Positions 688 to 19,067 of a DNA stretch of 64,000 bases are shown piece by piece (position 1 is the stretch's first letter; each line of letters begins with the position of its first letter). This stretch comes from Denitratisoma sp. GTDB lineage: Bacteria > Pseudomonadota > Gammaproteobacteria > Burkholderiales > Rhodocyclaceae. The notes under the pieces are model-generated. The model was not told the origin of the DNA and searched no databases. It worked only from the letters and a program-made list of their open reading frames with translations. The stretch spans positions 189,950 to 253,949 of the forward strand of contig JAVSMO010000001.1 of assembly GCA_032027165.1 (NCBI GenBank), given 5' to 3'. The position numbers were made by a program, and so were the translations under genes.

Positions 688-1575
<888 letters not shown>

Positions 1576-1596
1576 TCGTTTCTTGTATTTGGCAGC

Positions 1597-1627
1597 AGCG
1601 CCGCCTCAAGGGCGGCGTTGTTGTTTG
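1597..1627 (+). terminator. Rho-independent terminator after sucD
   Basis: Stem CGCCGCC (1599-1605), loop TCAAG, stem GGCGGCG (1611-1617), followed by TTGTTGTTTG. Starts 22 nt after the sucD stop. Confidence 0.6.
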
Positions 1628-1878
1628 CAGACCTTGGGCAATGACTGAAATGCCGTCAAATTTGCGACCAAGAAATATTTGACTATCTTCATGTTTGCCT
1701 GTAAGAATTACGATTAAATTGCTGTTTCTACGCAGGTTGGTCGGCTTTAAGGGTATTCTTGCGGCCTGCGGCATAACGTTTCAAGCTGTGCGCGAATGTG
1801 TTGCGGGTCGGGTGTCCGCATGCGCACGGTTGCTTCTCCAATAAAGACAAAATATTCGGCAGGAGAGGACAGCGCAGC

Positions 1879-4461: not shown

Positions 4462-4466
4462 GAGGA

Positions 4467-5291: not shown

Positions 5292-5311
5292 ATTGACGAG
5301 AAGGACGCAAC

Positions 5312-6070
5312 ATGGCTGCTAAGTTGATCCTAAGCATGGATGGCCTGGTGCTCAAGGAAATTCCGCTCACCAAAGAGCGGACGACGATCGGGCGCAAGCC
5401 GCATAACGATATCCAGATCGACAATCTGGCCATCAGCGGCGAACATTCGGTGATCGTCACGATCCTCAATGATTCGTTTCTTGAGGACTTGAACAGCACC
5501 AATGGCACTTACGTGAATGGCCAGCCCATCAAAAAGCATTTTCTGCAGAACAACGACGTCGTCGAATTGGGCAAATACAAGCTCAAATACATTAACGAGA
5601 CGCCCACGCAGACGACGGCTGCGGATTTCGAGAAAACGATGGTGCTGCGGCCCGACCTGATGAAGAAGACGGCGGAGCAGACGGCTGCCAAGTCATCCTC
5701 GATGAGCGATACACAGGTCGGCATGAAGGCCCTGGATACCCATGCCGGCATGGCGCCGCCTGCCCAGGGGGCTCCTCCGGCAGCGGCGCCCGCCCCGCAG
5801 GCGATGCCGACCGGGGCCATCCAGATCCTGACAGGCGCCAATGCAGGGAAGGAACTGGAGTTGACCAAGAATCTCACCACCTTGGGCAAACCGGGCGTTC
5901 AGGTGGCTGTCATCACCCGCCGCCCGCACGGCTACTTCATCACCCATGTCGAAGGGGCCAACTTCCCGGTCGTCAATGGCACTACGCTGGATGCCCATCC
6001 GCGCGAATTGAAGGATCATGACGTCATTGAGCTGGCCGGCATCAAAATGGAGTTCTTCCTCAAGAGCTGA
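5312..6070 (+). CDS. FHA-domain protein: N-terminal canonical FHA, Pro/Ala/Thr-rich linker, C-terminal FHA-like domain
   Basis: N-terminus reads TIGRKPHNDIQIDNLAISGEHSVI...STNGTYVNG (the GR...SxxH...NG pattern). The C-terminal 85 aa have an FHA-like layout (LGKPG...VNGTTL...) with GK in place of GR. Confidence 0.85.
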   Translation: MAAKLILSMDGLVLKEIPLTKERTTIGRKPHNDIQIDNLAISGEHSVIVTILNDSFLEDLNSTNGTYVNGQPIKKHFLQNNDVVELGKYKLKYINETPTQTTAADFEKTMVLRPDLMKKTAEQTAAKSSSMSDTQVGMKALDTHAGMAPPAQGAPPAAAPAPQAMPTGAIQILTGANAGKELELTKNLTTLGKPGVQVAVITRRPHGYFITHVEGANFPVVNGTTLDAHPRELKDHDVIELAGIKMEFFLKS

Positions 6071-6183
6071 GTCCGGCGACACAATCTTGGATGCAGTATC
6101 CCGGCTGCATGCAGTTTTGAAACCGCCACCATGAGTTGGACGTCAGGCTTGCTTAATGCGGGACAGTTCGGGAGGGGGCGGTT

Positions 6184-8415
6184 TTGAAGCAGTACATCGT
6201 CAGGTACGCACTGGGGTTCGTGGTATTGCTTGTTCTGCTAGGCCACGCGGCGCGTTTCTACGAGCTCGGCTTCATCAACCGGCTCGACGCCATCATCTAT
6301 GACACCAAGGTGCGCCTTACCATGCCTAAGGGCATGGATGATCGTGTCGTCATTCTCGATATCGATGAGAAATCCCTCGGAGAGATCGGCCGCTGGCCCT
6401 GGGGGCGGGATCGGGTTTCGCAGCTCGTCAGGAAACTGTTCGATCAGCATGGGGTCGCCATTCTCGGCTTTGACGTCGTCTTCGCCGAGCCGGATGACAG
6501 TTCCGGCTTGAAGGCGCTTGAAGGGCTGGCCAAGGGGGATCTCAAGGACAGCACGCAATTCCAGGCAGCGCTCAAGGAACTCCGACCGCAGCTGGATCAT
6601 GACGGGCGTTTTGTGGAAACGCTCAGGGGACGTCCGGTGATTCTCGGCTATTACCTTTCGGGGCGAAGCGACGGCGTGTCCAGCGGCGCATTGCCTCCGC
6701 CCGTATTGCCCGAAGGCAGCTTCACGGGGCGAAGCATTCCCTTCACCATCTGGACCAATTACGGTGGCAATCTGGCCGAGTTCCAGAAAGCGGCCCTTTC
6801 CGGAGGGCACTTCAATCCCCTGGTCGACTTCGATGGCATCTCGCGTCGAGTTCCCCTCTTGGCCGAATTCAAGGGCGAATACTATGAAGCGTTGTCGCTG
6901 GCCATGGTGCGGGCTCTGATCGGCCAGCCGAAGGTGGTGCCCTGGTTTCCTGATGACCGCTGGTTTTCCAGCAAGAGCTACCAGGGCATGGAAGCCATCG
7001 ACCTGCCGACCGCGCGCGGCACGCTGCGCGTCCCGGTGGATGAAAACGTTGCCGCCCTGATTCCCTATCGCGGCTACCAGGGCAGTTATCGATACTATTC
7101 GATTGCCGACATCATGGCGGACCGGATCAAGCCGGGCGAGCTCAAAGGCAAGATTGCTCTGATCGGCACGACTGCGCCGGGCCTGCTCGACCTGCGCGCC
7201 ACTCCCGTAGGGGAGGCTTATCCCGGGGTGGAAATTCATGCCAACCTGATCACAGGCATGCTTGACGGGGCAATCAAGCATAAGCCGTCCTATGTGCTGG
7301 GGGCCGAAGTGATTCTACTTCTGCTGGCCGGCCTCGTGATGGTGCTGTTGCTGCCGCTGCTATCGCCGCTACGGGCAACCCTTGCATCCATTGTGCTGTT
7401 GCTGTTCATCCTGACGGTGAACCTCGTCTTCTGGGAGTACGGCAACCTGGTGCTGCCGCTCGCCTCCGCCGTGCTGCTGGTACTGACTTTATACGCGCTC
7501 AACATGTCGTACGGCTATTTCGTCGAGTCGCGGACGAAGCGGCAGTTCACCGAGTTGTTCGGACAGTACGTGCCACCGGAACTGGTGGAGGAAATGAGCC
7601 GCAATCCCGAGTCCTATAGCATGGAAGGCCGCAAGGCCGAGCTGACCGTGCTGTTCTCGGACATTCGTGGATTTACAACGATATCCGAGGGGCTCGGGCC
7701 GGACGAACTGACCCGCCTGATGAACGAGTACCTGTCGGCCATGACCGAAGTGGTGCGCAGGAACAGAGGTACCCTGGACAAATATATCGGGGACGCCATC
7801 ATGGCCTTCTGGGGCGCTCCGGTGAGCGATGCGCAGCATGCCCGCCATGCCGTCGTCACGGCGATGCAAATGCAGGCCGCCCTGCCTGCGGTCAACAAGA
7901 CGTTTGCCGCAAAGGGCTGGCCCGAAATCAAGATTGGCGTCGGCGTCAACACGGGCGACATGACCGTGGGCGACATGGGGTCGGCCGTGCGCAAGGCTTA
8001 TACTGTCATGGGCGATGCGGTAAACCTCGGTTCGCGGCTTGAGGGCATCACCAAGCAGTACGGAGTCGGCATTCTGGTGGGCGAGACTGCGCGCAAGGCC
8101 ATCAAGGACATCGTCTTCCGGGAGGTGGACCGGGTGCAGGTGAAGGGCAAGGAAGAGCCGGTTGCCATCTATGAGCCGATCGGCCTTGAAGGCGAGGTAG
8201 ACAAGGCAACACAGGAAGAGATCAAGCTATGGAACCAGGCCTTGCGCCACTACCGCGCCCAGGAATGGGATCAGGCGGAGGTGGCGCTGTTGAACTTGTC
8301 GCGGCTGGCGCCCGGACGGGCACTGTACGGCAAGTATATGGAACGGATTACCCATCTGCGCAGGGAACCGCCCGAGCCGGGATGGAAAGGCGTGTGGAAG
8401 TTCGAGACCAAGTAA
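6184..8415 (+). CDS. CHASE2-sensor class III adenylate/guanylate cyclase
   Basis: TTG start follows GGGAGGGGG. CHASE2 motif GRWPWGR, then a TM block at about aa 365-445. Cyclase motifs: LFSDIRGFT, DKYIGDAIMAFWG, GDAVNLGSRLE. Confidence 0.9.
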   Translation: MKQYIVRYALGFVVLLVLLGHAARFYELGFINRLDAIIYDTKVRLTMPKGMDDRVVILDIDEKSLGEIGRWPWGRDRVSQLVRKLFDQHGVAILGFDVVFAEPDDSSGLKALEGLAKGDLKDSTQFQAALKELRPQLDHDGRFVETLRGRPVILGYYLSGRSDGVSSGALPPPVLPEGSFTGRSIPFTIWTNYGGNLAEFQKAALSGGHFNPLVDFDGISRRVPLLAEFKGEYYEALSLAMVRALIGQPKVVPWFPDDRWFSSKSYQGMEAIDLPTARGTLRVPVDENVAALIPYRGYQGSYRYYSIADIMADRIKPGELKGKIALIGTTAPGLLDLRATPVGEAYPGVEIHANLITGMLDGAIKHKPSYVLGAEVILLLLAGLVMVLLLPLLSPLRATLASIVLLLFILTVNLVFWEYGNLVLPLASAVLLVLTLYALNMSYGYFVESRTKRQFTELFGQYVPPELVEEMSRNPESYSMEGRKAELTVLFSDIRGFTTISEGLGPDELTRLMNEYLSAMTEVVRRNRGTLDKYIGDAIMAFWGAPVSDAQHARHAVVTAMQMQAALPAVNKTFAAKGWPEIKIGVGVNTGDMTVGDMGSAVRKAYTVMGDAVNLGSRLEGITKQYGVGILVGETARKAIKDIVFREVDRVQVKGKEEPVAIYEPIGLEGEVDKATQEEIKLWNQALRHYRAQEWDQAEVALLNLSRLAPGRALYGKYMERITHLRREPPEPGWKGVWKFETK

Positions 8416-8431
8416 CGTAAGAGATAAAGAA

Positions 8432-9199
8432 ATGAAGGTCAGAGTTCTCGGCTGCAGCGGCGGGATTGGCGGGCGCCATCTGCGCACTACTTCGCTGCTT
8501 GTCGACCACGACATCCTAATTGACGCAGGAACCGGTGTGGGTGATCTGTCGCTGGCCGAACTGGCTTTGATCGATCACGTTTTCCTCACCCATTCGCACC
8601 TCGACCATGTTGCCTGTTTGCCGTTCATGGTCGACACCGTGGGCGACATGCGCAACAAACCGCTGACGGTGCATGCCACCCAGGCCACGCTGGAAATCAT
8701 CCAGGCGCACATCTTCAACTGGGCCATCTGGCCTGACTTCTCGGAAATCCCCAACCGCGAGAAACCGTTCATGCGCTATGCTGAACTGAAGACCGGCAAG
8801 ACGGTGAAGGTGGAAGGGCGCGAGATCACCCCGCTTCCGGCCAATCACACCGTACCCGCGGTGGGCTATCGGATCGATTCCGGCGAGGGCAGTCTGGTGT
8901 TCAGCGGCGACACAACGGTGTGCGATGAGTTGTGGAAGGTCGTGAACAAGATCCGCAACCTGCGCTACCTCATCATCGAAACCGCCTTTTCCAACCGCGA
9001 GCGGCAACTTGCCGTCGCCTCGAAGCATCTATGCCCCGATATGCTTCGGGAGGAACTGCTGAAACTCCAGCGCGAGGCGGATATCTACATCACTCACCTC
9101 AAGCCCGGGCAGATCGAGCTGACCATGCAGGAAATCGAGGAGTTCATCGGAGAATACAGGCCGCGCATGTTGCAGAACAACCAGGTGTTTGAGCTGTAA
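8432..9199 (+). CDS. Class II 3',5'-cyclic-nucleotide phosphodiesterase (metallo-beta-lactamase fold)
   Basis: 255 aa starting MKVRVLGCSGG, with the THSHLDH metal motif. Layout resembles CpdP/yeast PDE1-type class II PDEs. No obvious signal peptide. Confidence 0.75.
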   Translation: MKVRVLGCSGGIGGRHLRTTSLLVDHDILIDAGTGVGDLSLAELALIDHVFLTHSHLDHVACLPFMVDTVGDMRNKPLTVHATQATLEIIQAHIFNWAIWPDFSEIPNREKPFMRYAELKTGKTVKVEGREITPLPANHTVPAVGYRIDSGEGSLVFSGDTTVCDELWKVVNKIRNLRYLIIETAFSNRERQLAVASKHLCPDMLREELLKLQREADIYITHLKPGQIELTMQEIEEFIGEYRPRMLQNNQVFEL

Positions 9200-9209
9200 G
9201 GGCTCGCGA

Positions 9210-10277
9210 ATGAGCATGCAATCCATTTCCACGGACGTATTGAGGCGGCTCGAGCCGCTGGGGGCGCTGTCGCCGGACAGCCTTCGCGAGATATCCCGCA
9301 TGTGCTATGCAGAAAAAATCAGCCGGAATCTCGACCCGTTCCGGCTGCAGGGCATGCAGGGGCAGGCTGTCTATCTCGTCAAGGGCGAATTGAAGATTGA
9401 TTATCCGGATTCAAGCTCCGAAATCCTGGTCGGCGGGACAGAGGCAGCCGTTCGTCCGCTGGACAAACGAAAACCCGCATTTACGGGCGCCAAGGCGATT
9501 ACGGACGTCGAGTTGATCCGAATCGACGAGGAACTGCTCGATATCATGCTGACGTGGGACCAGCTGGCCGCCCCGCAGGCCACAGCTGGCGCGAAGAAAA
9601 CCCCGGATGCGGCGGATCGTACGGATTGGCGCACGATGTCCGGCATGTTTGCGGCAGAGAACCTGACGCACGGCATATTTGCCAGTCTGCCGCCGGCCAA
9701 CATAGAGGCGCTGTTCGCACGTTTTCACCGCATCAAGGTGGCGCGCGGCGAAGTGGTCATCAGAGAAGGGGAGGATGGAGACTTCTATTACGTCATCGAA
9801 AGCGGGCGTTGCACGGTGTCCCGCCAGATTGGGGGCGCCACCGTCGGACTGGCCGAGTTGAAGACCGGCGATGCCTTCGGGGAGGAAGCCTTGGTGGCAA
9901 ACACCAAGCGAAATGCGACGGTTGCAATGAAAACCGATGGCGTTCTGTTGAGGCTGGCGAAGGCGGATTTCATCGAGTTGCTGAAAGAGCCCCTGATGCA
10001 TCGCATTTCGCGTCCGGAAGCGGACAAGAAAGCGGCTGCCGGAGCAATCTGGCTGGACGTCCGCTTTGCTGCCGAATACAACACCGACAAGCTGCCGGGG
10101 GCGATCAACATTCCGCTCAACGAGATACGCAACCTGTTCGGCTCTCTCGACCGCCAGAAGGAGTATATTGCCTACTGTCAGAGTGGGCGACGCAGTTCGG
10201 CGGCAGCATTTCTGCTCTCCCAGCGTGGCTATAAGACTTATCTGCTCGAAGGCGGTCTTCGCGGCAGTGCTGCATAA
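9210..10277 (+). CDS. Cyclic-nucleotide-binding (CAP effector-type) protein fused to a C-terminal rhodanese domain
   Basis: Canonical cNMP cassette GDAFGEEAL...KRNATV follows a degenerate first cNMP-like domain. The C-terminal rhodanese has the active-site loop YCQSGRRS. ATG 9210 lies in frame with the ORF-track TTG 9189. Confidence 0.85.
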   Translation: MSMQSISTDVLRRLEPLGALSPDSLREISRMCYAEKISRNLDPFRLQGMQGQAVYLVKGELKIDYPDSSSEILVGGTEAAVRPLDKRKPAFTGAKAITDVELIRIDEELLDIMLTWDQLAAPQATAGAKKTPDAADRTDWRTMSGMFAAENLTHGIFASLPPANIEALFARFHRIKVARGEVVIREGEDGDFYYVIESGRCTVSRQIGGATVGLAELKTGDAFGEEALVANTKRNATVAMKTDGVLLRLAKADFIELLKEPLMHRISRPEADKKAAAGAIWLDVRFAAEYNTDKLPGAINIPLNEIRNLFGSLDRQKEYIAYCQSGRRSSAAAFLLSQRGYKTYLLEGGLRGSAA

Positions 10278-10313
10278 GGCACGCATCCCAATGGCTCAGA
10301 AGGGAAATCTGGT

Positions 10314-12689
10314 ATGAGTGCGGTGCTTGGTTCGACTCAGGATTCTGGAGGCGGGGGCGATGTCGCCAGCCGCCTGTCTTTCTTCAAGAACCTCCAGACA
10401 GTCACCAACAAGATCCATGCGACGGCCAACATCGACGAGATCATGCTCGAGTTGTCGCAGGATATCTGTACGTTGTTCAACGCGGATCGGCTGACCATTT
10501 ACTCGATCAGCGAGGACAAGTCATCCATCGTCTCCAAGGTCAAGACCGGCCTCAATTCCTTCAAGGACCTGCGGCTGCCGATCGCCGACCAGAGCATCGC
10601 CGGCTTCGTTGCGCTGTCGAAAAAGCTGGCCAATATCAGCGACGTCTACGACGAGGCGGAACTGAAGTCGCACACACCCAGCCTGCGCTTCCTGCAGGAG
10701 GTGGATAAGCGTACCGGCTACCGCACCAAGCAGATGTTGGTGGCCCCGATTACCGACGCGCAAAGCGGTGAGTTGCTCGGGGTGGTCCAGCTCATCAACA
10801 ACAAGTCCGGAGCGCCTTTCTCCCAAGTGGCAGAGGAGGGAGTAAAAGGACTGTGCGAAACGCTGGCCATTGCATTCACCCAGCGCCAGAAGCCGGCGCA
10901 TGTCGTCAAATCGAAATATGACCATCTGGTCGCCGATGCCGTGCTTTCGGCTGCCGAGTTTGATCTTGCCACGCGTTCTGCGCGGCGCAAGGGCATGGAT
11001 ATCGAAGAGGTTTTGCAGCATGAATTCCAGGTCAAGCAGGCGGCGATCGGCTCCGCGCTGTCAAAGTTCTTCGGCGTGCCCTATGAACCCTTCAAGGGCG
11101 ATCGCATCAAGCCGATGGATCTGCTGAAAAACCTCAAGCGGGATTACGTCGAGGAAAACCAGTGGTTGCCGATCGAGGAAACGAAGGAAGGCGTCGTCAT
11201 CCTGACGATGGATCCCGAGCAGGTCAAAAGCTCACGCATCGTCAACAACGTCTTTCCGAAGAACAAGCTGGTCTTCCGCGTCACCACCATCCAGGAATTC
11301 AAGCAGACGCTCGACCAGTTCTATGGCGCCGCCGCCGATTATGGCTCGGTTGGCGATCTTCTTTCCGGCATGGACGAAGGGGAGGAGGGCGGTGGCGAGC
11401 TGACCGGAGAAGACCTTTCTGCGGCAGCGGACAACGAACTGGTCAAGCTCGTCAACAAGATCATCATCGATGCCTACAATCAGGGCGCATCGGATATTCA
11501 TATCGAGCCGCGGCCGGGCAAGGACAAGACCATCATCCGCTTCCGCAAGGACGGCTCGCTGGCGAACTACATCGAGATTCCGGCAAGCTACCGCAATGCC
11601 CTGGCAGCGCGCATCAAGATCATGTGCGATCTGGATATATCCGAGCGTCGCAAGCCCCAGGACGGCAAGATCAAGTTCAAGAAGTTCGGTCCGCTCGATA
11701 TCGAACTGCGCGTTGCGACGATTCCATCGGCCGGCGGCGTCGAGGATGTGGTCATGCGCATCCTCGCCGCCGGGGAACCGATCCCGCTCGAGAAGCTCGG
11801 CATCCTGCCACACAACCTGGAGCGGTTGAAGAGCGTAGTCGAGAAGCCCTATGGACTGTTCTTCGTCTGCGGTCCGACCGGTTCGGGAAAGACAACCACG
11901 CTGCATTCCGTTCTGAAACACCTGAATACGCCGGACACGAAGATATGGACGGCAGAAGACCCGGTCGAGATCACGCAGAAAGGGCTGCGGCAGGTCCAGA
12001 TCAACCGCAAGGCCGGACTGGATTTCGCCACCATCATGCGCGCCTTTCTGCGTGCCGACCCGGACATCATCATGGTTGGCGAGATGCGCGACAAGGAGAC
12101 CGTCTCCATCGGCATCGAGGCGTCGCTGACCGGCCACCTGGTGTTCGCCACGCTGCACACCAACAGCGCGCCCGAATCGATCACCCGCCTGCTCGACATG
12201 GGCATGGACCCCTTCAACTTTGCCGACGCCCTGCTCGGCATCCTGGCGCAGCGCCTGGGCAAGCGCTTGTGCGGAGAATGCAAGGAGGCCTACACCCCCT
12301 CAGGGGAGGAAATGAAGAGCCTGCTCACCGAGTACTGCGAGGAACTGCTCAACACCAGCACCTTCAAGAAGGATGCCAAGGCAGGCTACGAGACGGTGTA
12401 CAAGGAATGGGTGAAGAATTATGCCGACGACAAGGGACAGTTCAAGCTCTACAAACCGAAGGGCTGCGAAAAATGCAACAACACCGGCTACAAGGGGCGA
12501 GTCGGTTTGCACGAACTGATGGTGGGAACGGATAATGCCAAGAAGCTGATCCAGGAGCATGCTCGGGTTGCCGAGCTGGTCGCCTGCGCCCTGGAGGACG
12601 GCATGCGTACCCTGAAGCAGGATGGCATCGAGAAGGTGCTGCAGGGCATCACCGACATGAAGCAGGTTCGGGCGGTTTGCATCAAGTAA
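10314..12689 (+). CDS. GAF-domain-fused GspE/PilB-family secretion/pilus-assembly ATPase
   Basis: N-terminal GAF spans about aa 30-190, followed by a T2SSE_N-like domain. Walker A is GPTGSGKTTTL and Walker B region is IIMVGEMRD. Tetra-Cys motif CGEC...CEKC is typical of extension-type ATPases. Confidence 0.9.
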   Translation: MSAVLGSTQDSGGGGDVASRLSFFKNLQTVTNKIHATANIDEIMLELSQDICTLFNADRLTIYSISEDKSSIVSKVKTGLNSFKDLRLPIADQSIAGFVALSKKLANISDVYDEAELKSHTPSLRFLQEVDKRTGYRTKQMLVAPITDAQSGELLGVVQLINNKSGAPFSQVAEEGVKGLCETLAIAFTQRQKPAHVVKSKYDHLVADAVLSAAEFDLATRSARRKGMDIEEVLQHEFQVKQAAIGSALSKFFGVPYEPFKGDRIKPMDLLKNLKRDYVEENQWLPIEETKEGVVILTMDPEQVKSSRIVNNVFPKNKLVFRVTTIQEFKQTLDQFYGAAADYGSVGDLLSGMDEGEEGGGELTGEDLSAAADNELVKLVNKIIIDAYNQGASDIHIEPRPGKDKTIIRFRKDGSLANYIEIPASYRNALAARIKIMCDLDISERRKPQDGKIKFKKFGPLDIELRVATIPSAGGVEDVVMRILAAGEPIPLEKLGILPHNLERLKSVVEKPYGLFFVCGPTGSGKTTTLHSVLKHLNTPDTKIWTAEDPVEITQKGLRQVQINRKAGLDFATIMRAFLRADPDIIMVGEMRDKETVSIGIEASLTGHLVFATLHTNSAPESITRLLDMGMDPFNFADALLGILAQRLGKRLCGECKEAYTPSGEEMKSLLTEYCEELLNTSTFKKDAKAGYETVYKEWVKNYADDKGQFKLYKPKGCEKCNNTGYKGRVGLHELMVGTDNAKKLIQEHARVAELVACALEDGMRTLKQDGIEKVLQGITDMKQVRAVCIK

Positions 12690-14338
12690 GCGCCGTGGAC
12701 ACCATCGAGGACCTCTTTCGGCGGTTCGAGCAGCTCAACGAGATCGGCGCTGCCCTCTCCCACGAGCGGGATATCGGCAGGTTGCTCGAGAACATTCTGG
12801 TCGCTGCCAAAAACATCACCCACGCCGACGGCGGTACCCTCTACCGCATGACCGAGGGCGAGGCCAGCCTGCGTTTCGAGATCATGCGCAACGACAGCCT
12901 GAAGATCGCCCTGGGCGGCACCTCGGGCAACCCCATCCCCTTCCCGCCGTTGCCGTTGCGCACCGAGAGCGGCGAAGAGAACAACTCGATGGTGGCCGCC
13001 TACGCCGCCATCCACCAGAAGACCGTCAACATCGACGACGCCTACCAGGCGGAGGGCTTCGATTTCTCCGGCACGCGCAAATTCGACGAGCGCACCGGCT
13101 ACCGCTCGCAGTCGTTCCTGACGGTGCCGATGAAGAACCACGAGAACGCGGTGATCGGCGTGCTGCAACTGATCAACTCGATTGACCCGGACACGAAGCG
13201 GGTCGTGCCGTTCTCGGCCGCCGACCAGCAGCTGGCCGAATCGCTTGCCTCGCAGGCGGCCATTGCCCTGACCAACCGCCAGCTCATCACGCAGTTGGAG
13301 CAGCTGTTCGAATCCTTCATCCAGTTGATCAACGTGGCGATCGACGAGAAATCACCCTATACGGGCGGCCATTGCGAGCGCGTGCCGGTGCTCACCATGA
13401 TGCTGGCCGAAGCGGTGAACGAGACTAAAACCGGGCCGCTTGCCGACTTCGGCATGTCGGACAAGGACCGCTACGAACTGAAGATTGCCGGACTGCTGCA
13501 TGATTGCGGCAAGGTGACGACGCCGGTGCATGTGGTCGACAAGGCCACCAAGCTGCAGACGCTTTTCGATCGCATCCACCTGGTCGATACCCGCTTCGAG
13601 GTGCTCAAGCGCGATGCGCAGATCGCCATGCTCAAGGCCAAGCTGAACCTTCGCGATTCCCACGATTCGCGTGCGGAGGCCATGCTCGAAGAGGACCTCG
13701 TGCGCCATCTGCGCCAGATCGACGCCGACCGCGAGTTCCTGCGTCAGGCGAACATCGGCTCGGAGCTGATGACGCCGGAAGCCCAGGAGCGCGTGAAGAA
13801 GATCGGGACCGGCTACCGCTGGATGGACGTCGGTGGCAAATCCGCCAACTTCCTCACCGATGACGAACTGGAGAACCTCAACATTCGCGCCGGCACGCTG
13901 ACGCAGAAGGAACGCGAGACGATCAATTACCACATCGTCGCCACCAACAAGATGCTCGAGCAGTTGCCTTGGCCCAAGCACCTGAAAAACGTCCCGGAAT
14001 ACGCCGGCGGCCACCACGAACGCATGGACGGCAAAGGCTACCCGAAAGGGCTCACCCGCGAGCAGATGAGCGTGCAGGCCCGCGTCATGGGCATTGCCGA
14101 CATCTTCGAGGCCCTGACTGCCCGCGACCGGCCCTACAAGCGCGGCAAGACGCTATCCGAATCGCTGGAGATTCTCGGCAACTTCAAGCTCAACGGCCAC
14201 ATCGATCCGGATCTTTTCGATGTCTTCGTGCGGCAAAAGGTGTATCTGAAGTACGCTGAGCAATTCCTCGACCCGGAACAGATCGACGAAGTGGATGAAT
14301 CGAAAATTCCAGGCTACCAAGCACGGAATGCTGCTTAG
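12677..14338 (+). CDS. GAF-domain HD-GYP phosphohydrolase (predicted c-di-GMP phosphodiesterase)
   Basis: N-terminal GAF, then HD (LLHDCGK) and GGHHERMDGKGYPKGL (HHExxDGxGYP). The start is uncertain: TTG 12677 overlaps the upstream stop by 13 nt; GTG 12695 is the alternative. Confidence 0.88.
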   Translation: MHQVSAVDTIEDLFRRFEQLNEIGAALSHERDIGRLLENILVAAKNITHADGGTLYRMTEGEASLRFEIMRNDSLKIALGGTSGNPIPFPPLPLRTESGEENNSMVAAYAAIHQKTVNIDDAYQAEGFDFSGTRKFDERTGYRSQSFLTVPMKNHENAVIGVLQLINSIDPDTKRVVPFSAADQQLAESLASQAAIALTNRQLITQLEQLFESFIQLINVAIDEKSPYTGGHCERVPVLTMMLAEAVNETKTGPLADFGMSDKDRYELKIAGLLHDCGKVTTPVHVVDKATKLQTLFDRIHLVDTRFEVLKRDAQIAMLKAKLNLRDSHDSRAEAMLEEDLVRHLRQIDADREFLRQANIGSELMTPEAQERVKKIGTGYRWMDVGGKSANFLTDDELENLNIRAGTLTQKERETINYHIVATNKMLEQLPWPKHLKNVPEYAGGHHERMDGKGYPKGLTREQMSVQARVMGIADIFEALTARDRPYKRGKTLSESLEILGNFKLNGHIDPDLFDVFVRQKVYLKYAEQFLDPEQIDEVDESKIPGYQARNAA

Positions 14339-14343
14339 CAGCA

Positions 14344-14366
14344 GAAGTGACGCGGGGCGTCACTTC
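14344..14366 (+). terminator. Possible terminator hairpin after the HD-GYP gene (no U-tract)
   Basis: Perfect 10-bp stem GAAGTGACGC / GCGTCACTTC with a GGG loop, 6 nt after the stop. It lacks a T-run, so function is uncertain. Confidence 0.3.
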
Positions 14367-14444
14367 CTGCCCTTGCAATTCATGTCCATGCACCTCTCAA
14401 GCATTCATCTTAAATAAAACAAAGCATTAAATCATTACCCCATC

Positions 14445-14460
14445 TGGCACGACTATTGCG
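14445..14460 (+). promoter_or_regulatory. Sigma54 (-24/-12) promoter for pilA
   Basis: TGGCAC-N5-TTGC (TGGCACGACTATTGCG) with GG-N10-GC spacing, about 72 nt upstream of the pilA ATG. pilA is RpoN/PilR-dependent in several proteobacteria. Confidence 0.6.
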
Positions 14461-14530
14461 TAAAATCCCACGTGTGTCGGGAGCGTCATAAGATCCCTGC
14501 CATACTTTCCAACTGCAGAAGGAGAACTTC

Positions 14531-14977
14531 ATGAAGACGATTCAAAAAGGCTTTACCCTGATCGAACTGATGATCGTGGTCGCGATCATCGGCATCTTGG
14601 CCGCCGTTGCACTGCCGGCCTATCAGGACTACACGGTTCGCGCCAAGGTTTCGGAAGGTCTGATCGCCGCTTCGTCGGCGCGTACCGCCGTTTCCGAAGT
14701 CTATGCGAATGCCGGCCGGATGCTGCCCAGCGCTGCCTCGATGAACGTGCAGACGCAGGATTCGCAGTGGGTGGCAAGCGTGGGTTGGACGTATACCGAC
14801 GATAATTCAGGCGATATCGTCGTGACGCTCAAGGACGTTGCCGGTTTGGGCGCAGCGAGAAATACCACCCTGATTCTCCGTGCCTCTGGCACTTCGACGA
14901 CCGGCGCAGTGGGCTGGCTGTGCGGCAAGGGCACGATCAACTCGAAGTACCTGCCGGGTTCCTGCAAGGACTTCTGA
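14531..14977 (+). CDS. pilA: Type IVa major pilin
   Basis: AAGGAG RBS. Short leader MKTIQKG, then [27 protein letters not shown] (Phe1, Glu5). C-terminal disulfide loop [15 protein letters not shown]. Confidence 0.92.
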
Positions 14978-14997
14978 TCGATCCGGTCTGACGAGAG

Positions 14998-15030
14998 GCC
15001 CCCTGGCGATCCCAGGGGGCTTTTTCTTTC
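14998..15030 (+). terminator. Rho-independent terminator after pilA
   Basis: GCCCCCTGG (14998-15006), loop CGATC, CCAGGGGGC (15012-15020), then TTTTTCTTTC. Confidence 0.8.
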
Positions 15031-15039
15031 TGCCTCCCC

Positions 15040-16962
15040 GTGCGAACTTCAGCCCTTGCCGCGCTTGCGACGTTCGTTGTCTGTACGCTTCTGGCGGCGC
15101 TTTACGCACCGGGGCTGCAGGGCGGCTTTTTCTTCGATGACGAGCCGAGCATTCTGTATGCCGAAGGCGTTCGCCTCGATCGTCTCGACGCAGGTTCTCT
15201 GCGCGAAGCATTCGCCAGCGGACGCTCCGGCCCCTCGGGCCGTCCCGTCGCCCAGTTGAGCTTCGCCCTCAATTACCATTTCAGCGGCTTCGAGCCCATC
15301 GCCTTCAAGGCGACCAACCTCGCCATCCATGCCGCCTGCGGGGTGCTGGTTTTCCTGTTGAGCCTGCGCCTCTACGCGGCGTCGCGCGTCCCCAAGGCAA
15401 TGGTGTTTGCCGGCGTTGTGGCCGTGATCTGGCTGTTGCATCCGCTGCAACTTACGCCGGTCCTGCACGTCGTGCAGCGCATGACCAGCCTGTCGGCCCT
15501 GTTTCTCCTGGCTGCCCTGCTATCTCATGTGGTCGCGCGCGAGCGTGGTGGCCGCGGCGGCGCAACCCTTCTCATATTGGCCTGGGGCGTGCTGTGGCCC
15601 TTATCGTTTTTCAGCAAGGAAAGCGGTGCGCTTTTCCCGTTCTTCGTGCTGGCTTGGGAGCTGATCCTGCGGCGCAATGAACGCGGCAGTCTGGACGGCT
15701 TCGCGCGCGTCTTCGCCGTACTGGCTGGGCTGACTTTGCTCGGGGCAGCGATCTACCTGGCGCTGCCTTCCGGCCGATGGCTGTGGGCGGGCTATGCGGT
15801 TCGCGACTTTTCCCCTTTCGAACGGATGCTTACGGAAGGGCGCGTGCTGTGGTTCTACATCGGGCTCGTTGCCCTGCCGCGCCTGGAAGCGTTAGGACTC
15901 TACCACGACGACATCGCCCTCTCGACCGGCTTGCTTACGCCCTGGACGACGCTGCCGGCGTGGGTGGGCCTGGTCGGCCTGGCCTGGCTGGCCTGGCGGC
16001 TCCGTTCGCGGGCGCCGCTTGCGTCTTTCGGCATTGCCTGGTTCTTTGTCGGCCATGCGCTGGAGTCCACCCTCTTGCCGCTGGAAATCGCTCACGAGCA
16101 TCGCAACTACCTGCCGCTGCTCGGCATCCTGCTGGCTGGCGTCTATGGACTGAGCCGCCTGTTGGCGGCACCCGGGCCACGCAGGACGCTCGGCCTCACG
16201 CTGGCCGTGGCGGTGCTGCTCTACCTGCCATTCGTTACCGCATTGCGGGCACACCAGTTCAGCGGAGAACTCCTGCGCACGCAAATCGAGGCGCAGCATC
16301 ATAGAGGGTCGCCGCGGGCCCAGTACGATGCGGGGCGCGTACTGGCTTCGCAACTCGAGGCGATGCAGACCGATTCTCCGGCCTATTCGTTCGCAAGGGC
16401 GCATTTCGAGCGGGCAGGCGAGCTGAATCCCGGCTTCAAGCTCGGTTTGCTCGGGCTCATTTATCTGAACTGCCGCGCCGGGATACCGGCTGAAACAGGC
16501 TGGGTTGCGGAATTGGCCCGCCGCTTGCGCAACACGCCGTTCGGCCCGGGCGACAGCGGGGTATTGCTCCAGTTGAAGGACCTCTCGATCTCGGGCACCC
16601 TCTGTCTCAAACGAGCGGATGTGGAGCAACTTTTTGTCGCTGCGCTGGACAACCCGACCGCCGCCCCGCATCACCGTGTCGACATGCACTCATGGCTGGC
16701 GGATTACCTGGTGCTGGGTGCGCGCGATCTGCCTGCCGCCCAGATCGCACTGGAGCGCGCCCTGGCTCTTGCCCCGTATAATTCCGGCAACCGCCTTAAG
16801 CGGGCGCAACTGGCCATTCTCCTGGGCCGTCGGGCAGAAGCCCTGGAGATTCTGGCCAAGGTGGAGAAGCTGCCCTTGAAACGTGCCGAAAGGGAATTGA
16901 TGGCCGAATTGAGGCGTTGCCTCGACAGCACACAGGCTGGTGTCGCCTGCGTCGGCAAATAG
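15040..16962 (+). CDS. Polytopic membrane GT-C-like glycosyltransferase (PMT/TMTC/ArnT-like) with C-terminal TPR-like domain; candidate pilin glycosyltransferase
   Basis: 640 aa. After the first hydrophobic helix comes the acidic motif GGFFFDDEPS. About 10 hydrophobic segments run to about aa 400, followed by a soluble helical-repeat C-terminus. Starts 10 nt after the pilA terminator. Confidence 0.55.
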   Translation: MRTSALAALATFVVCTLLAALYAPGLQGGFFFDDEPSILYAEGVRLDRLDAGSLREAFASGRSGPSGRPVAQLSFALNYHFSGFEPIAFKATNLAIHAACGVLVFLLSLRLYAASRVPKAMVFAGVVAVIWLLHPLQLTPVLHVVQRMTSLSALFLLAALLSHVVARERGGRGGATLLILAWGVLWPLSFFSKESGALFPFFVLAWELILRRNERGSLDGFARVFAVLAGLTLLGAAIYLALPSGRWLWAGYAVRDFSPFERMLTEGRVLWFYIGLVALPRLEALGLYHDDIALSTGLLTPWTTLPAWVGLVGLAWLAWRLRSRAPLASFGIAWFFVGHALESTLLPLEIAHEHRNYLPLLGILLAGVYGLSRLLAAPGPRRTLGLTLAVAVLLYLPFVTALRAHQFSGELLRTQIEAQHHRGSPRAQYDAGRVLASQLEAMQTDSPAYSFARAHFERAGELNPGFKLGLLGLIYLNCRAGIPAETGWVAELARRLRNTPFGPGDSGVLLQLKDLSISGTLCLKRADVEQLFVAALDNPTAAPHHRVDMHSWLADYLVLGARDLPAAQIALERALALAPYNSGNRLKRAQLAILLGRRAEALEILAKVEKLPLKRAERELMAELRRCLDSTQAGVACVGK

Positions 16963-17047
16963 CCGTTCCGGCGCTGGAGCGGGAATCAGTAGAATTTCAT
17001 TTTGCAGTGGCGGCTGCATTTTATGAATAGGCCTTGGGAGCGCATGC

Positions 17048-17347
17048 ATGATCCTGAGTTGGTTCGATGCAAAGGCGGCAGTCGATTTCGGGCACGGCCT
17101 TGCCGACTTCTATGACAAGCAATCCAGACTCAATGCGAAGGCGAGCAATCAAAAGATTGCGGATAAGCAGCAGAAACTCGTGGCGCAGCTTTTGCTGAAG
17201 GCCCGGCAGTTCAATGCCGCGCATAAGTTGAATGCGTATCAAAAGGCGAAACTGGGTAATGCCTTCAAGTGGAAATTGCATGACATGGGTCACGATACTG
17301 AGCTTGTCGATGTGATGACCAAGGACCTCATGTTTGCCTTGCGATAG
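17048..17347 (+). CDS. Hypothetical small Lys-rich helical protein
   Basis: 99-aa ORF in the lowest-GC part of the window. GGGAG lies 8 nt upstream of the ATG. No motif recognised. Confidence 0.4.
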   Translation: MILSWFDAKAAVDFGHGLADFYDKQSRLNAKASNQKIADKQQKLVAQLLLKARQFNAAHKLNAYQKAKLGNAFKWKLHDMGHDTELVDVMTKDLMFALR

Positions 17348-17381
17348 CGCTGCATCCAGCGGGAAGTACTTGGGTGATTCG

Positions 17382-19037
17382 ATGTTCAAGTGGTTCAGGA
17401 AGGTTTTTCTGAGCAAAGGCAGCAGCGAGCCTGCAACAGGACAAGAGGCGCCTGTTATGACTGCCTATCGGGTGGACGAGGAGGTACAACAGGCCTACCG
17501 CCTGCTTTCCGAAGGCCAGCCGAGGCAGGCGGAGGCATGCTGTCGGCGCGCCCTCAAGGCGGATGCAGGTGTCGCAGAAGCCCACTACTTGCTCGGCTCT
17601 GCGCTGAGGGCTCAAGGTCGCCTGCTGGAGGCGATCGCGAGTTACCGTCATGCCACTGTACTCAGGCCGGATTACGCTCAAGCGCATTTGGACATGGGGG
17701 AAGTGCTTTCCGGGCAGGGCGATCTCGACGCGGCAATCATCGCTTTCAGGGCTGCCGCTTCGCTGCTTCCGGATTATGCGGAGTTGCATTCGAACCTGGG
17801 TACGCTCTACCGGAAGCGCGGCCATGCCGGCCAGGCGGAGGCCTGCTATCGGGAGGCGATCAAGCTCAAGCCCGATTTCTACGCCGCGCATTTCAATCTC
17901 GGAAATTTGCTGCTGAATCAGGGACGATTGTCCGAAGCCGAGGTCTGCTATCAGGCTGCCATTGCATGCAAGCCCGACTTGGTTGCGGCCCATCACAATC
18001 TGGGCGACGTCTTGAAGGATCAGGGCAGGTTCGATGAGGCGATGTCCTGCTACGAACGGGCGCTGACGGTTTCCCCCGATTACCCGGCATCCAGATGGCA
18101 CCAGACGATGCTGTCGCTGCTGACGGGCGACTTGCAAAGAGGCCTTCCGGGCTATGAATATCGCTGGAAGCTGGCGAAGGAGGAACAGCCGCGCGACTTT
18201 ACGCAGCCTTTGTGGCTGGGCGACGCGGATATTCGCGGAAAGACCATCCTTTTGTACGCCGAAAAAGGTTTCGGCGATACGCTCCAGTTCGTGCGTTATG
18301 CAGCACAGGTTGCGGCACTGGGCGCCAAGGTCATCCTGGAAGTGCAGGCACCGCTCAAGTCGCTGCTGTCAGCGTACCCGGGCATGGATAAGGTTCTTGC
18401 GAGAGGCGAGCCCCTGCCGCCATTTGAGTACCAGTGCCCCCTGATGAGCCTCCCCCTGGCGTTCAAGACGGTAGTTGCCACGATCCCCGCTATGAACCGC
18501 TATATTTCAGCGCCGTCGGATCGCGTCACGTACTGGGCCGGCCAAATGAAGCAATACCGTTCTCCGCGCATCGGCCTCGTCTGGTCCGGCAATACCGGGC
18601 AGTCGAACGACATGAACCGCTCGATGACCCTGAAGGTACTGGCTCCCCTGATATCTGGCTCGCGCCATCATTTCTTCGCCTTGGTGAAGGAGGTGCGGGA
18701 GCACGACAGGACGCTGCTGCGGTCAATGCCCAATGTGACCGACCTTTCCCAGCAACTGACGGATTTCAGCGAGACGGCAGCGATTCTCGAGAATCTGGAT
18801 TTGCTGATTGCCGTTGACACCTCGGTGGCCCATCTGGCCGGTGCACTTGGGAAACCTGCTTGGATAATGCTGTCTTACGTGCCGGACTGGCGCTGGTTCA
18901 TCAACCGCCCGAATAGCCCCTGGTACCCGTCCGTGCGGCTGTTCAGGCAGCCTGCGCACAACGATTGGGGAAGCGTCGTCGAGTTGCTGAGGACTGAGCT
19001 AGATCTGCTTATTGCGGACAGGAGCGAATCTTGCTGA
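17382..19037 (+). CDS. TPR-repeat protein fused to a GT9-like (heptosyltransferase-fold) glycosyltransferase domain
   Basis: N-terminal half holds about 6 TPRs (A..Y..ALK..PD repeats). C-terminal half has GFGDTLQFVRY...VDTSVAHLAGALGKP, typical of the ADP-heptose transferase family. ATG 17382 is chosen over the upstream ORF-track start. Confidence 0.75.
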   Translation: MFKWFRKVFLSKGSSEPATGQEAPVMTAYRVDEEVQQAYRLLSEGQPRQAEACCRRALKADAGVAEAHYLLGSALRAQGRLLEAIASYRHATVLRPDYAQAHLDMGEVLSGQGDLDAAIIAFRAAASLLPDYAELHSNLGTLYRKRGHAGQAEACYREAIKLKPDFYAAHFNLGNLLLNQGRLSEAEVCYQAAIACKPDLVAAHHNLGDVLKDQGRFDEAMSCYERALTVSPDYPASRWHQTMLSLLTGDLQRGLPGYEYRWKLAKEEQPRDFTQPLWLGDADIRGKTILLYAEKGFGDTLQFVRYAAQVAALGAKVILEVQAPLKSLLSAYPGMDKVLARGEPLPPFEYQCPLMSLPLAFKTVVATIPAMNRYISAPSDRVTYWAGQMKQYRSPRIGLVWSGNTGQSNDMNRSMTLKVLAPLISGSRHHFFALVKEVREHDRTLLRSMPNVTDLSQQLTDFSETAAILENLDLLIAVDTSVAHLAGALGKPAWIMLSYVPDWRWFINRPNSPWYPSVRLFRQPAHNDWGSVVELLRTELDLLIADRSESC

Positions 19038-19067
19038 AATCCCTTCCTTATACGGCGGATATGGAAT

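Follow-up and report, generated by a model that had tools for sequence, protein, structure and literature searches.

Several described systems resemble parts of the locus examined here, which lies in a 64 kb stretch of DNA from Denitratisoma sp. that was analyzed as a whole and is referred to as the window. Tlr0485 in Thermosynechococcus vulcanus is a GAF-HD-GYP c-di-GMP phosphodiesterase activated by cAMP (Enomoto et al. 2020, as cited in bioRxiv 10.1101/2021.11.05.467447, PMC8846402). As far as it is described there, it shares with a protein in the window a GAF-HD-GYP architecture in which the HD and HHExxDGxGYP motifs are intact, as well as the proposed logic whereby cAMP on the GAF domain leads to c-di-GMP hydrolysis. 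The window protein differs in that it is betaproteobacterial, is encoded beside a presumed cyclase and phosphodiesterase, holds an insertion of about 110 residues in the HD-GYP domain, and has a glycine (G52) rather than an arginine at the position of R291 in CyaB2. PmGH of Persephonella marina (PDB 4MCW) also has the GAF-HD-GYP architecture and an identical DKRTGYRT motif, and its GAF domain was a strong sequence match to both GAF domains in the window. No ligand has been identified for the PmGH GAF domain, and the precedent is structural rather than functional.

The other GAF domain is located on an ATPase, and its best solved relative is found in CyaB2 of Anabaena (PDB 1YKD, E = 6.8e-29), which like CyaB1 has tandem GAF domains. 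The motifs A-D-R-x-T, I/F-A-G, D-x-x-T/N-G-Y-R-T and G-V-x-Q-L-[VIL]-N are common to the two, but the window protein has a single GAF domain, with a T2SSE ATPase in place of a cyclase as its output, and the Asp of the NKFDE motif is replaced by Ala (A173) or another hydrophobic residue. MshE, PilB and PA14_29490-type ATPases are controlled by c-di-GMP via the MshEN domain (PMC5013675, PMC4624772). They share with the window ATPase a T2SSE core with a Zn-cysteine motif, an N-terminal MshEN-like fold and, in concept, the gating of a pilus or secretion motor by a second-messenger nucleotide through an N-terminal sensor. The window ATPase differs in its degenerate half-sites, an added N-terminal GAF domain and the predicted messenger, cAMP. 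Finally, cAMP controls cyclic-dinucleotide enzymes in Lcd1 (Leptospira GAF-GGDEF, PDB 5W10), GacB (Myxococcus GAF-Hypr GGDEF) and Bd1971 (cNMP-binding-EAL), where it acts via a GAF or CAP-type domain, but these have other output domains and only weak similarity to the window GAF domains (E = 1.7e-5 and 0.014 for 5W10).

Gene content and linkage of the cluster

All features described here are located on the forward strand. The cluster contains a CHASE2-class III nucleotide cyclase of 743 amino acids (nt 6184-8415; Pfam CHASE2 and Guanylate_cyc), the catalytic domain of which covers approximately nt 7630-8157. The substrate pair is Lys (in DKYIGD) and Thr (in AYTVMGDAVN); the same pair occurs in P. 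aeruginosa CyaB (3r5g) and Spirulina CyaC (1wc0), whereas the guanylyl cyclase Cya2 (2w01) differs. These 2 residues, both metal Asp residues, the Asn and the Arg were invariant in 64 of 64 orthologs. The cyclase is predicted to be of the adenylyl type and, since the Lys/Thr pair is that of adenylyl cyclases, the product would be expected to be cAMP and not, as originally predicted, cAMP/cGMP.

The following gene (nt 8432-9199) codes for an MBL-fold protein of 255 amino acids (Pfam Lactamase_B_2 and PDEase_II), predicted to be a class-II-like cyclic-nucleotide phosphodiesterase. It scored 44.5 bits against PDEase_II, for which the cut-off is 23.7, and matched the NCBIfam family "cyclic nucleotide-degrading phosphodiesterase" weakly; its HSHLDH motif was invariant (67/67). 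The next protein, of 362 amino acids (nt 9189-10277), combines a CAP-type cNMP_binding domain (Pfam, 182-266) with a Rhodanese domain (279-358), contains the phosphate-binding cassette FGEEAL...RNATV, and is a putative accessory third cNMP receptor. It is followed by the genes for the GAF-MshEN-like-T2SSE ATPase (nt 10314-12689; 791 amino acids; Pfam GAF, MshEN and T2SSE) and the GAF-HD-GYP protein (nt 12677-14338; Pfam GAF, HD and HD_5). The latter is a predicted c-di-GMP phosphodiesterase in which the HD and HHExxDGxGYP motifs were invariant (68/68). Its start was placed at TTG 12677, giving 553 amino acids, versus GTG 12695 and 547 amino acids in the database annotation, and the databases hold 547 amino acid proteins that are 100% identical to it. 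An accessory trio upstream (nt 1798-6070) consists, according to Pfam, of a CHASE2-Ser/Thr kinase (nt 1798-4461), a PP2C phosphatase (nt 4458-5291) and an FHA protein (nt 5312-6070).

The genes for the cyclase, the MBL phosphodiesterase and the GAF-HD-GYP protein were all located at most 10 kb from the GAF-ATPase gene in 39 of the 49 fully flanked loci, and this four-gene set occurred in 2 gene arrangements, one of them divergent. Taken singly, the HD-GYP and MBL phosphodiesterase genes were each near the ATPase gene in 46/49 loci, and a nearby cyclase gene was missing in 5. The gene for the CAP-type/rhodanese protein was present in only 18 loci and absent in Undibacterium, and the kinase/PP2C/FHA trio was present in 36 to 40 of the 49 loci and absent from the four-gene form in Oxalobacteraceae. 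In Undibacterium pigrum, the bare four-gene module was located between housekeeping genes. It was also noted that no pilus or T2SS structural genes were conserved beside the ATPase, that a type IV pilin gene (nt 14531-14977; Pfam Pilin and N_methyl) is a variable neighbor, adjoining in only 16/49 loci, and that neither a platform protein nor a secretin was encoded anywhere in the window. These patterns support the conclusion that both GAF domains are firmly tied by genome context to a class III cyclase and a cNMP phosphodiesterase, and the cluster context strongly supports a cAMP circuit.

Relationship between the two GAF domains

The GAF domains cover residues 40-187 of the ATPase (nt 10431-10874) and residues 32-198 of the HD-GYP protein (nt 12770-13270), as delimited by Pfam. 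The peptides quoted in the original prediction were found verbatim at F126-S170 (nt 10689-10823) and R134-S180 (nt 13076-13216), respectively. Translated in all six frames, the window contained the pattern D..TGYR[TS]...L..P[IM]...GV.QLIN at just two places, one in each of these domains. For both domains, the PDB structures matched were nearly all those of CyaB2 or PDE2/5/6/10. Matches of both domains to cNMP-type GAF structures in the PDB had E-values from 1e-29 to about 1e-5, and other GAF types gave 1e-2 or worse. The ATPase GAF domain matched CyaB2 best, followed by PDE6/10/2/5 and PmGH. For the HD-GYP GAF domain, the best matches were to PDE5 GAF-A/B (1.5e-18 with the single sequence, 2e-28 with the family profile), followed by CyaB2, PmGH, PDE2A and PDE10A. 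This comparison supports the proposed placement of both domains in the PDE/CyaB cNMP-GAF clade, and not with FhlA/NifA, bilin or heme GAF domains. The fold evidence, which covers the ATPase GAF domain only, agrees: with an AF2 model (pLDDT 77), the top 22 Foldseek matches were all cNMP-type GAF domains, the first being PmGH.

The two domains had been described as paralogous, and homology well beyond chance was evident both by BLASTP (29% identity, E = 8e-15) and between the family profiles (probability 99%, E = 6e-18), but the term applies only at the subfamily level, and they are not close paralogs. When phmmer scores were brought to a common library size, the ATPase GAF domain scored 34 bits against its neighbor (E = 0.0025), as compared to 54 and 53 bits against the CyaB2 GAF domains (range 52-54), 46 against PmGH, 43 against PDE10A and 42 against PDE2A; 4462 representative clusters passed a cut-off of E <= 0.001 that the neighbor did not. 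One reading of the term, that a local duplication within the operon left both domains with the same ligand and mechanism by recent descent, would fit the adjoining genes, the common motif and the 29% identity, but is scarcely credible given these scores. Moreover, the nearest relatives of the ATPase GAF domain were GAF domains on other T2SSE ATPases, with one to three such domains each, and the HD-GYP GAF domain scored highest against PDE5 GAF-A (37 bits in the same scheme) and has the PDE5-specific long beta2-beta3 region and NK-to-F spacer. Judged by these comparisons, the domains represent a CyaB2-like lineage in the ATPase and a PDE5-like lineage in the HD-GYP protein.

Predicted ligand pockets

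The PDE2A contacts S424, I458, A459, D485, T488, T492 and E512 correspond to T61, I95, A96, D131, T134, T138 and Q159 in the ATPase GAF domain, and to T54, V106, A107, D137, T140, S144 and Q164 in the HD-GYP GAF domain. The cAMP contacts of CyaB2 GAF-B, R291, T293, I308, D356 and N359 (PMC4411481), correspond to R59, T61, V76, D131 and T134 in the ATPase, the first 4 being conserved. A contact framework of the beta1 Thr, I/V-Ala, D-x-x-T-G-Y-R-T/S and Gln is kept in both domains. D58, R59, S94, G97, D131, T134, G135, Y136, R137, Q159, N162 and F169 were invariant in all 81 ATPase orthologs, and T61 (79/81), A96 (79/81) and T138 (75/81, otherwise Ser) nearly so. In the HD-GYP GAF domain, T54, D137, Y142, Q164, N167 and F179 were invariant and D51 (73/74), S144 (71/74) and D183 (70/74) nearly invariant, and T140 was kept in 57/74, bulky residues having replaced T140/G141 in Oxalobacteraceae.

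The pattern given in the original prediction as a cNMP-binding signature is typical of the cNMP-GAF clade, but the published NKFDE motif was kept at only 3/5 positions in each domain (N162-N163-F169-A173-E174 and N167-S168-F179-D183-Q184). Single NKFDE mutations weaken or abolish cGMP binding in PDE2, PDE5 and PDE11 (PMC11977230). It is thus conceivable, if on balance unlikely, that one or both GAF domains no longer bind cyclic nucleotides and are dimerization or scaffold modules or bind another small molecule, the link to the cyclase being indirect, for example via the CAP-type protein. The lack of an R291-equivalent Arg in the HD-GYP GAF domain, the loss of its TG dipeptide in Oxalobacteraceae, and the invariant K75, K77 and T78 in beta2 of the ATPase GAF domain, which have no counterpart in the liganded GAF domains compared, would agree with such a loss. 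Nor does clade membership guarantee binding, since the clade includes PmGH as well as PDE5 GAF-B, which we take to be a non-binder and whose comparison sequence lacks TGY.T. However, both domains retain the direct contact positions, and the NKFDE motif of CyaB2 GAF-A is likewise 3/5 although that domain holds bound cAMP in the 1YKD structure. Furthermore, the minimal module lacks the CAP-type protein, so that its cyclase and phosphodiesterase would be without a reader unless the GAF domains read the nucleotide.

Within this clade, sequence does not allow specificity to be predicted (PMC4411481), and the nearest solved relatives of the HD-GYP GAF domain, those of PDE5, are cGMP-specific; the Arg that it lacks contacts adenine N1 in CyaB2. 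We nevertheless consider it improbable that the ligand is cGMP, or both nucleotides, even for this PDE5-like domain alone. The sole cyclase in the cluster has the adenylyl pair, the one characterized GAF-HD-GYP protein responds to cAMP, and the guanine-recognizing Phe-Asp position is occupied by M70-R71 in the HD-GYP GAF domain and K77-T78 in the ATPase GAF domain. The Phe-Asp dipeptide is carried by the cGMP-binding PDE2 and PDE5 GAF domains, and also by the cAMP-binding PDE10A GAF-B.

The MshEN-like region and a proposed cAMP module

The ATPase, an exact match to MDT3734794.1 (Denitratisoma sp.), has orthologs in at least 597 species genomes. It is labeled only as a "GspE/PulE family protein" in the databases, and its scores against the PilB and GspE equivalogs both fell short of the curated cut-offs. 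Its T2SSE core (nt 11427-12668, residues 372-785; Pfam 3e-118) contains GPTGSGKT and CxxC...CxxC, and Walker A and the four Zn-cysteines were invariant (81/81). In the MshEN-like region (nt 10908-11333; helical part at about residues 199-257, Pfam match at 253-340), the c-di-GMP motif was degenerate in both 24-residue half-sites, and none of the 81 family members matched the relaxed motif (PMC5013675). In a register checked against M. xanthus PilB, half-site I has K201-Y202-D203 and half-site II has D229-I230-E231 in place of RLG; E231 was invariant and the other replacements nearly so. Since the motif is missing, the ATPase probably does not sense c-di-GMP, the substrate of the HD-GYP protein, and the motor and c-di-GMP turnover are probably parallel outputs, which refines the wiring first suggested. 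Overall, the original observation was confirmed in part, and its interpretation is partly supported.

Going by the sequence evidence, we lean towards the view that the region belongs to a cAMP signaling module that is self-contained and conserved across Betaproteobacteria, and in which two GAF domains of different ancestry read cAMP in parallel. The membrane-bound CHASE2-adenylyl cyclase would convert an extracytoplasmic cue into cAMP, which the MBL-fold phosphodiesterase would clear. The PDE5-like GAF domain would switch on c-di-GMP hydrolysis upon binding of cAMP, as in Tlr0485, activation being the presumed direction of regulation and cAMP the presumed ligand. Because the MshEN motif is degenerate, the CyaB2-like GAF domain at the N-terminus of this orphan PilB/GspE-family hexameric ATPase may supply the allosteric input, standing in for the c-di-GMP/MshEN input known in MshE and PilB; nothing in the window indicates what the ATPase would power. 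While a cAMP-activated GAF-HD-GYP protein is already known, we found no description in the literature of a cNMP-type GAF domain on a PilB/GspE-family ATPase, and the GAF-bearing motor ATPase would be the part of the module for which no precedent was found. In many lineages, the CAP-type/rhodanese protein and the CHASE2-kinase/PP2C/FHA trio would add further inputs and outputs to the module.

Relationships of the two GAF domains

Both peptides quoted in the original prediction were found verbatim, at positions 10689-10823 and 13076-13216, and translation of the window in all six frames contained their shared core pattern at exactly 2 sites. GAF domains were called by Pfam in the motor ATPase, a GAF-MshEN-like-T2SSE protein (10314-12689, +), as well as in the GAF-HD-GYP protein (12677/12695-14338, +), and each of the two proteins had a 100% identical database entry. 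The best PDB match of the ATPase GAF (residues 40 to 187) was CyaB2 1YKD, with both of its GAF domains (6.8e-29), followed by PDE6C, PmGH, PDE10A, PDE2A, and PDE5, and non-cNMP GAF domains (cyanobacteriochromes, PtsP) were matched only at E ≥ 0.008. For the HD-GYP GAF (residues 32 to 198), the best match was PDE5 GAF-A/B, at 1.5e-18 with the single sequence and 2e-28 with the family profile, followed by CyaB2, PmGH, PDE2A, and PDE10A; outside the clade, the family profile matched DevS at about 1e-4 (6e-5) and NifA at about 1e-3 (2e-3).

An AF2 model of ATPase residues 1 to 360 (pLDDT 77) had the secondary-structure order of a GAF domain, and the best 22 Foldseek matches to this model all belonged to the cNMP-GAF clade, with target-normalised TM scores of up to 0.82. 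The AF2 model of the HD-GYP protein, which was built from a shallow alignment of 86% to 100% identity, was unusable (pLDDT 52, below 50 in the GAF region), and the fold evidence therefore concerns the ATPase GAF, while the assignment for the HD-GYP protein rests on sequence. By these comparisons, both GAF domains are of the cNMP type (PDE2/5/6/10/11, CyaB1/2) rather than of the FhlA/NifA, bilin, or haem types. The proposed kinship with the CyaB and PDE families was thereby borne out: the nearest characterised relatives were cNMP binders for both domains, and neither grouped with the FhlA/NifA or bilin types as judged by the PDB E-values.

The two domains had also been described as paralogous, which held at the level of the clade, a profile-profile comparison giving a probability of 99% (E = 6e-18, 28% identity), but not for a local pair. 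Under one scoring scheme, the ATPase GAF scored 54 and 53 bits against the 2 GAF domains of CyaB2, 46 against PmGH, 43 against PDE10A, and 42 against PDE2A, whereas its score against the neighbouring HD-GYP GAF was 34 bits (E = 0.0025); the HD-GYP GAF itself scored best with PDE5 GAF-A. When 1.84 billion representatives were searched exhaustively with the ATPase GAF, 4462 proteins had E ≤ 1e-3, and for 162 of these E was ≤ 1e-30. The top relatives were other T2SSE ATPases (with GAF, GAF-GAF, or GAF-GAF-GAF arrangements) and multi-GAF proteins, with only one GAF-GAF-HD-GYP protein among them. A local duplication was rejected because the neighbour scored below CyaB2, PmGH, PDE10A, and PDE2A. The lower neighbour score and the T2SSE-ATPase relatives argue for 2 GAF lineages instead of a duplicated pair and, on these scores, the operon unites a CyaB2-like lineage in the ATPase with a PDE5-like lineage in the HD-GYP protein.

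It was also noted that close relatives of the ATPase GAF are found in very large multi-GAF proteins (P0243, P0244, P0335, P0347, and P0359 in our search set). One multi-GAF relative of 2051 amino acids contained 7 matched GAF stretches; in another, 4 GAF domains were joined to an Mrr-type restriction endonuclease domain, and in a third, 3 were joined to AAA_35. Proteins with GAF and Sel1 repeats were also among the relatives.

Residues of the ligand pocket

The window GAFs were aligned to liganded GAF domains, with the target sequences taken from HMMER alignments, and 2 contact lists were mapped, one for CyaB2 GAF-B and one for PDE2A GAF-B. The contacts in CyaB2 GAF-B are R291, T293, I308, D356, and N359 (PMC4411481). 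They corresponded to R59, T61, V76, D131, and T134 in the ATPase, and to G52, T54, I69, D137, and T140 in the HD-GYP GAF. For PDE2A GAF-B, we took the contacts to be S424, I458, A459, D485, T488, T492, and E512, in a numbering that agreed with the sequence at 10 of 10 positions. Their counterparts were T61, I95, A96, D131, T134, T138, and Q159 in the ATPase, and T54, V106, A107, D137, T140, S144, and Q164 in the HD-GYP GAF.

Both domains keep the Ser/Thr of β1, the Ile/Val-Ala at the N-terminus of α4, the Asp-x-x-Thr-Gly-Tyr/Phe-x-Thr/Ser element, and the Gln/Glu of β6. Rather than missing binding-pocket residues, the alignment places the framework contacts in both. PDE5 GAF-B, which we take to be a non-binding comparison, was without the TGY.T element in this alignment. 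Residues F438, D439, and Y481 of PDE2A vary among known binders and were different in the window GAFs as well.

Among 81 ATPase orthologues, D58, R59, S94, G97, D131, T134, G135, Y136, R137, Q159, N162, and F169 were invariant, and T61 (79/81), A96 (79/81), and T138 (75/81, the rest Ser) nearly so. The 74 HD-GYP orthologues shared invariant T54, D137, Y142, Q164, N167, and F179 and near-invariant D51, S144, and D183, and T140-G141 were replaced by bulky residues specifically in the Oxalobacteraceae. Counts of the pocket motif among distant representatives were left out because fragments confounded them.

In the Oxalobacteraceae, the FD..TGYRS stretch of the HD-GYP GAF (residues 136 to 144) was changed to FDQQFHYKT, FDQQRGYHS, FDETYHYHS, and similar sequences. 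The altered loci, by our locus numbers, were L004, L005, L014, L015, L065, L067, L069, L073, L074, L078, and L079, and the TGYR of the ATPase GAF was invariant where this motif was altered. In this family, the HD-GYP sensor may bind a different ligand or none.

The "cNMP-binding signature" of the original prediction was upheld for the framework contacts of both domains but only in part for the published NKFDE motif, N-K-Xn-F-X3-D-E (PMC11977230, PMC4411481), mutations in which impair binding in PDE2, PDE5, and PDE11 (PMC11977230). The ATPase GAF matched 3 of its 5 positions (N162-N163-F169-A173-E174), as did the HD-GYP GAF (N167-S168-F179-D183-Q184, S168 being mostly Ala across the family), and the Lys-Asp pair was incomplete in each. 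CyaB2 GAF-A, which binds cAMP in the 1YKD structure, also matched 3 of 5 in the pocket alignment; NKFDE is accordingly not strictly required, and its incompleteness in the window GAFs calls for caution but does not refute the prediction.

The gene cluster and its conservation

The genes from sucC/sucD (14-1575) to the type IV pilin (14531-14977) were all located on the + strand and were tightly packed or overlapping. Between sucC/sucD and the ATPase gene lie those for a CHASE2-Ser/Thr kinase (1798-4461), a PP2C phosphatase (4458-5291), an FHA protein (5312-6070), a CHASE2-class III cyclase (6184-8415), an MBL-fold class-II-like cNMP phosphodiesterase (8432-9199), and a CAP-type cNMP-binding and rhodanese protein (9189-10277). 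A promoter and terminator scan of positions 1400-15200 gave nothing exceeding the shuffled expectation. The start of the HD-GYP gene was ambiguous: the longest open reading frame begins at a TTG codon at 12677, giving a 13-nt overlap with the ATPase stop, and the 547-amino-acid database entries begin at a GTG codon at 12695, 6 nt past that stop. The 2 genes look translationally coupled whichever start holds.

The CHASE2 sensor domain is used twice, in the kinase and in the cyclase directly downstream of the kinase/PP2C/FHA trio. This trio is reminiscent of PpkA/PppA/Fha1, the threonine-phosphorylation switch of type VI secretion. In the CAP-type/rhodanese protein, the phosphate-binding cassette is canonical (FGEEAL...RNATV), and the N-terminal 160 residues or so are without annotation; this protein is a putative accessory reader, since it was present in only 18 of the 49 loci with full flanks.

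In an alignment to 3r5g, 1wc0, and 2w01, the substrate pair of the cyclase consisted of the Lys in DKYIGD and the Thr in AYTVMGDAVN. P. aeruginosa CyaB and Spirulina CyaC share this pair, and Glu/Gly take its place in Cya2, a guanylyl cyclase. The Lys, the Thr, both metal-binding Asp residues, and the transition-state Asn and Arg were invariant in 64 of 64 orthologues. The cyclase is accordingly classed, from its residues, as a putative class III adenylyl cyclase of the Lys/Thr subtype, and of the "cAMP/cGMP" originally proposed as its product, cAMP is expected and cGMP is not. In CyaB2, adenine is contacted by R291/T293, which the A-D-R-x-T element of the ATPase GAF matches; sequence is not a reliable guide to ligand specificity in the cNMP-GAF clade (PMC4411481).

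The ATPase family, with identities of about 70%, had members in no fewer than 597 species genomes, most of them betaproteobacterial. Within 10 kb of the ATPase gene, the cyclase, the phosphodiesterase, and the GAF-HD-GYP protein were all encoded in 39 of the 49 loci, and singly the HD-GYP protein in 46, the phosphodiesterase in 46, and the cyclase in 42. The kinase/PP2C/FHA trio accompanied this module in 36 to 40 of the 49 loci, but not in the four-gene form of the Oxalobacteraceae. In this family, the ATPase gene is transcribed divergently from those for the cyclase, the HD-GYP protein, and the phosphodiesterase, and linkage has been kept despite the rearrangement. In Undibacterium pigrum, the module consists of exactly 4 genes, located between BenE and glyoxalase/PGI/KsgA/PdxA/SurA/LptD, without the CAP-type protein, the kinase trio, or the pilin. 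The 2 GAF proteins are thus the only candidate readers of the cyclase product in this minimal form, and of the indirect arguments that sensing is direct this is the strongest.

The motor ATPase and a possible cAMP circuit

The ATPase belongs to the T2SSE superfamily (Pfam, 3e-118), and its core is intact, with invariant Walker A and 4 invariant Zn-cysteines. It scored 485.6 against the PilB equivalog TIGR02538 and 454.8 against the GspE equivalog TIGR02533, under the NCBIfam curated cut-offs of 675.65 and 630.25, respectively, and its database name is only "GspE/PulE family protein". The c-di-GMP motif of MshEN domains is a tandem 24-residue RLGxx(L/V/I)(L/V/I)xxG(L/V/I)(L/V/I)xxxxLxxxLxxQ (PMC5013675). 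None of 81 family members matched the relaxed published pattern; with the register checked against M. xanthus PilB, the RLG elements were replaced by a conserved K-Y-D (Gly11 to D203) and, in motif II, by D-I-E (D229-I230-E231). A reading of c-di-GMP through MshEN was rejected on these motif grounds, and with so degenerate a motif the motor is probably blind to c-di-GMP. The paths from cAMP to the motor and from cAMP to the HD-GYP protein would be parallel branches.

A pilin gene adjoined the ATPase locus in only 16 of 49 loci, and no structural neighbour was conserved. The window contained neither a platform protein nor a secretin, and a search of its remaining 42 kb for ATPase partners gave only polysaccharide, efflux, and sulfur-metabolism genes. 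Downstream of the pilin are genes for 3 large TPR-rich proteins (640, 567, and 889 amino acids; 14531-21737 with the pilin), whose TPR matches are PilW-, Tgl-, and PrsT-like, and a glycosyltransferase cluster comes next. This arrangement may represent a pilin-modification or pilus-stability set and was poorly conserved across loci (3 to 8 of 80). The G+C content steps up at about 22000: it is 0.58-0.61 over 1-22 kb, where the signalling cluster, the pilin, and the TPR genes are located, and 0.64-0.72 over 22-64 kb. The latter part contains polysaccharide genes (glycosyltransferase, Wzt ABC, methyltransferase, sulfotransferase), a MacB/HlyD/OEP efflux system, an ATP-sulfurylase, and a PAS-HWE kinase. 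A CYTH-CHAD protein is encoded at 35474-37006 (-); its family, the triphosphate-tunnel metalloenzymes, counts class IV adenylyl cyclases among its members, and nothing linked the protein to the module.

In the HD-GYP protein, the HD and HHExxDGxGYP motifs were invariant (68/68). An insertion of about 110 residues (positions 13500-13860; residues 277 to 395, approximately) interrupts its HD-GYP domain, which Pfam matched as HD (230-330) and HD_5 (397-513). The AF2 model shows the insertion, at low-to-moderate confidence, as 2 long helices, short helices, and a small β-hairpin, and as modelled it resembles the insertion subdomain of Leptospira LIC_11189, a REC-GAF-HD-GYP protein (PMC12943098).

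The architecture and catalytic motifs are shared with Tlr0485, an established cAMP-activated GAF-HD-GYP protein (bioRxiv 10.1101/2021.11.05.467447, PMC8846402), and a cAMP response is predicted here by analogy. Lcd1 and GacB are established examples of GGDEF enzymes controlled by cAMP-binding GAF domains, and Bd1971 is one of an EAL enzyme under CAP-type control. The HD-GYP half would, by this analogy, add one more member to the Tlr0485-type mechanism. Our literature search retrieved no report of a GAF domain on a PilB, GspE, or MshE ATPase, nor of this cluster; the ATPase half, as read from its domains, joins a well-known sensor to a well-known motor in a pairing for which this search gave no precedent, and the c-di-GMP site usual for such motors is degenerate in it.

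That cNMP-type GAF domains are wired to the neighbouring cyclase is well supported by this indirect evidence. We lean, by a little, towards the full mechanism in which a cAMP circuit would be read by both GAF domains, with more confidence in the ATPase GAF than in the HD-GYP GAF because its pocket is invariant or nearly so. More tentatively, and as a proposal that we would not yet favour, a large family of PilB/GspE-type ATPases, with relatives of 1 to 3 GAF domains in other lineages, may have swapped its messenger input, the ancestral MshEN c-di-GMP site being dead and a CyaB2-like GAF making the motor cAMP-gated. Together with an adenylyl cyclase, a cAMP phosphodiesterase, and a cAMP-activated HD-GYP protein, it would form a portable four-gene circuit that lowers c-di-GMP and switches on an orphan motor. 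The cargo of such a motor could be a pilus or a secretion system, or its role could be purely signalling, as has been reported for M. xanthus PilB.

[quoted passage not shown] The module would also be a compact, gene-linked case of cAMP-to-c-di-GMP crosstalk and, because it is present in the cultured, tractable Oxalobacteraceae Undibacterium, Duganella, Pseudoduganella, and Noviherbaspirillum, the hypothesis is open to direct test there.
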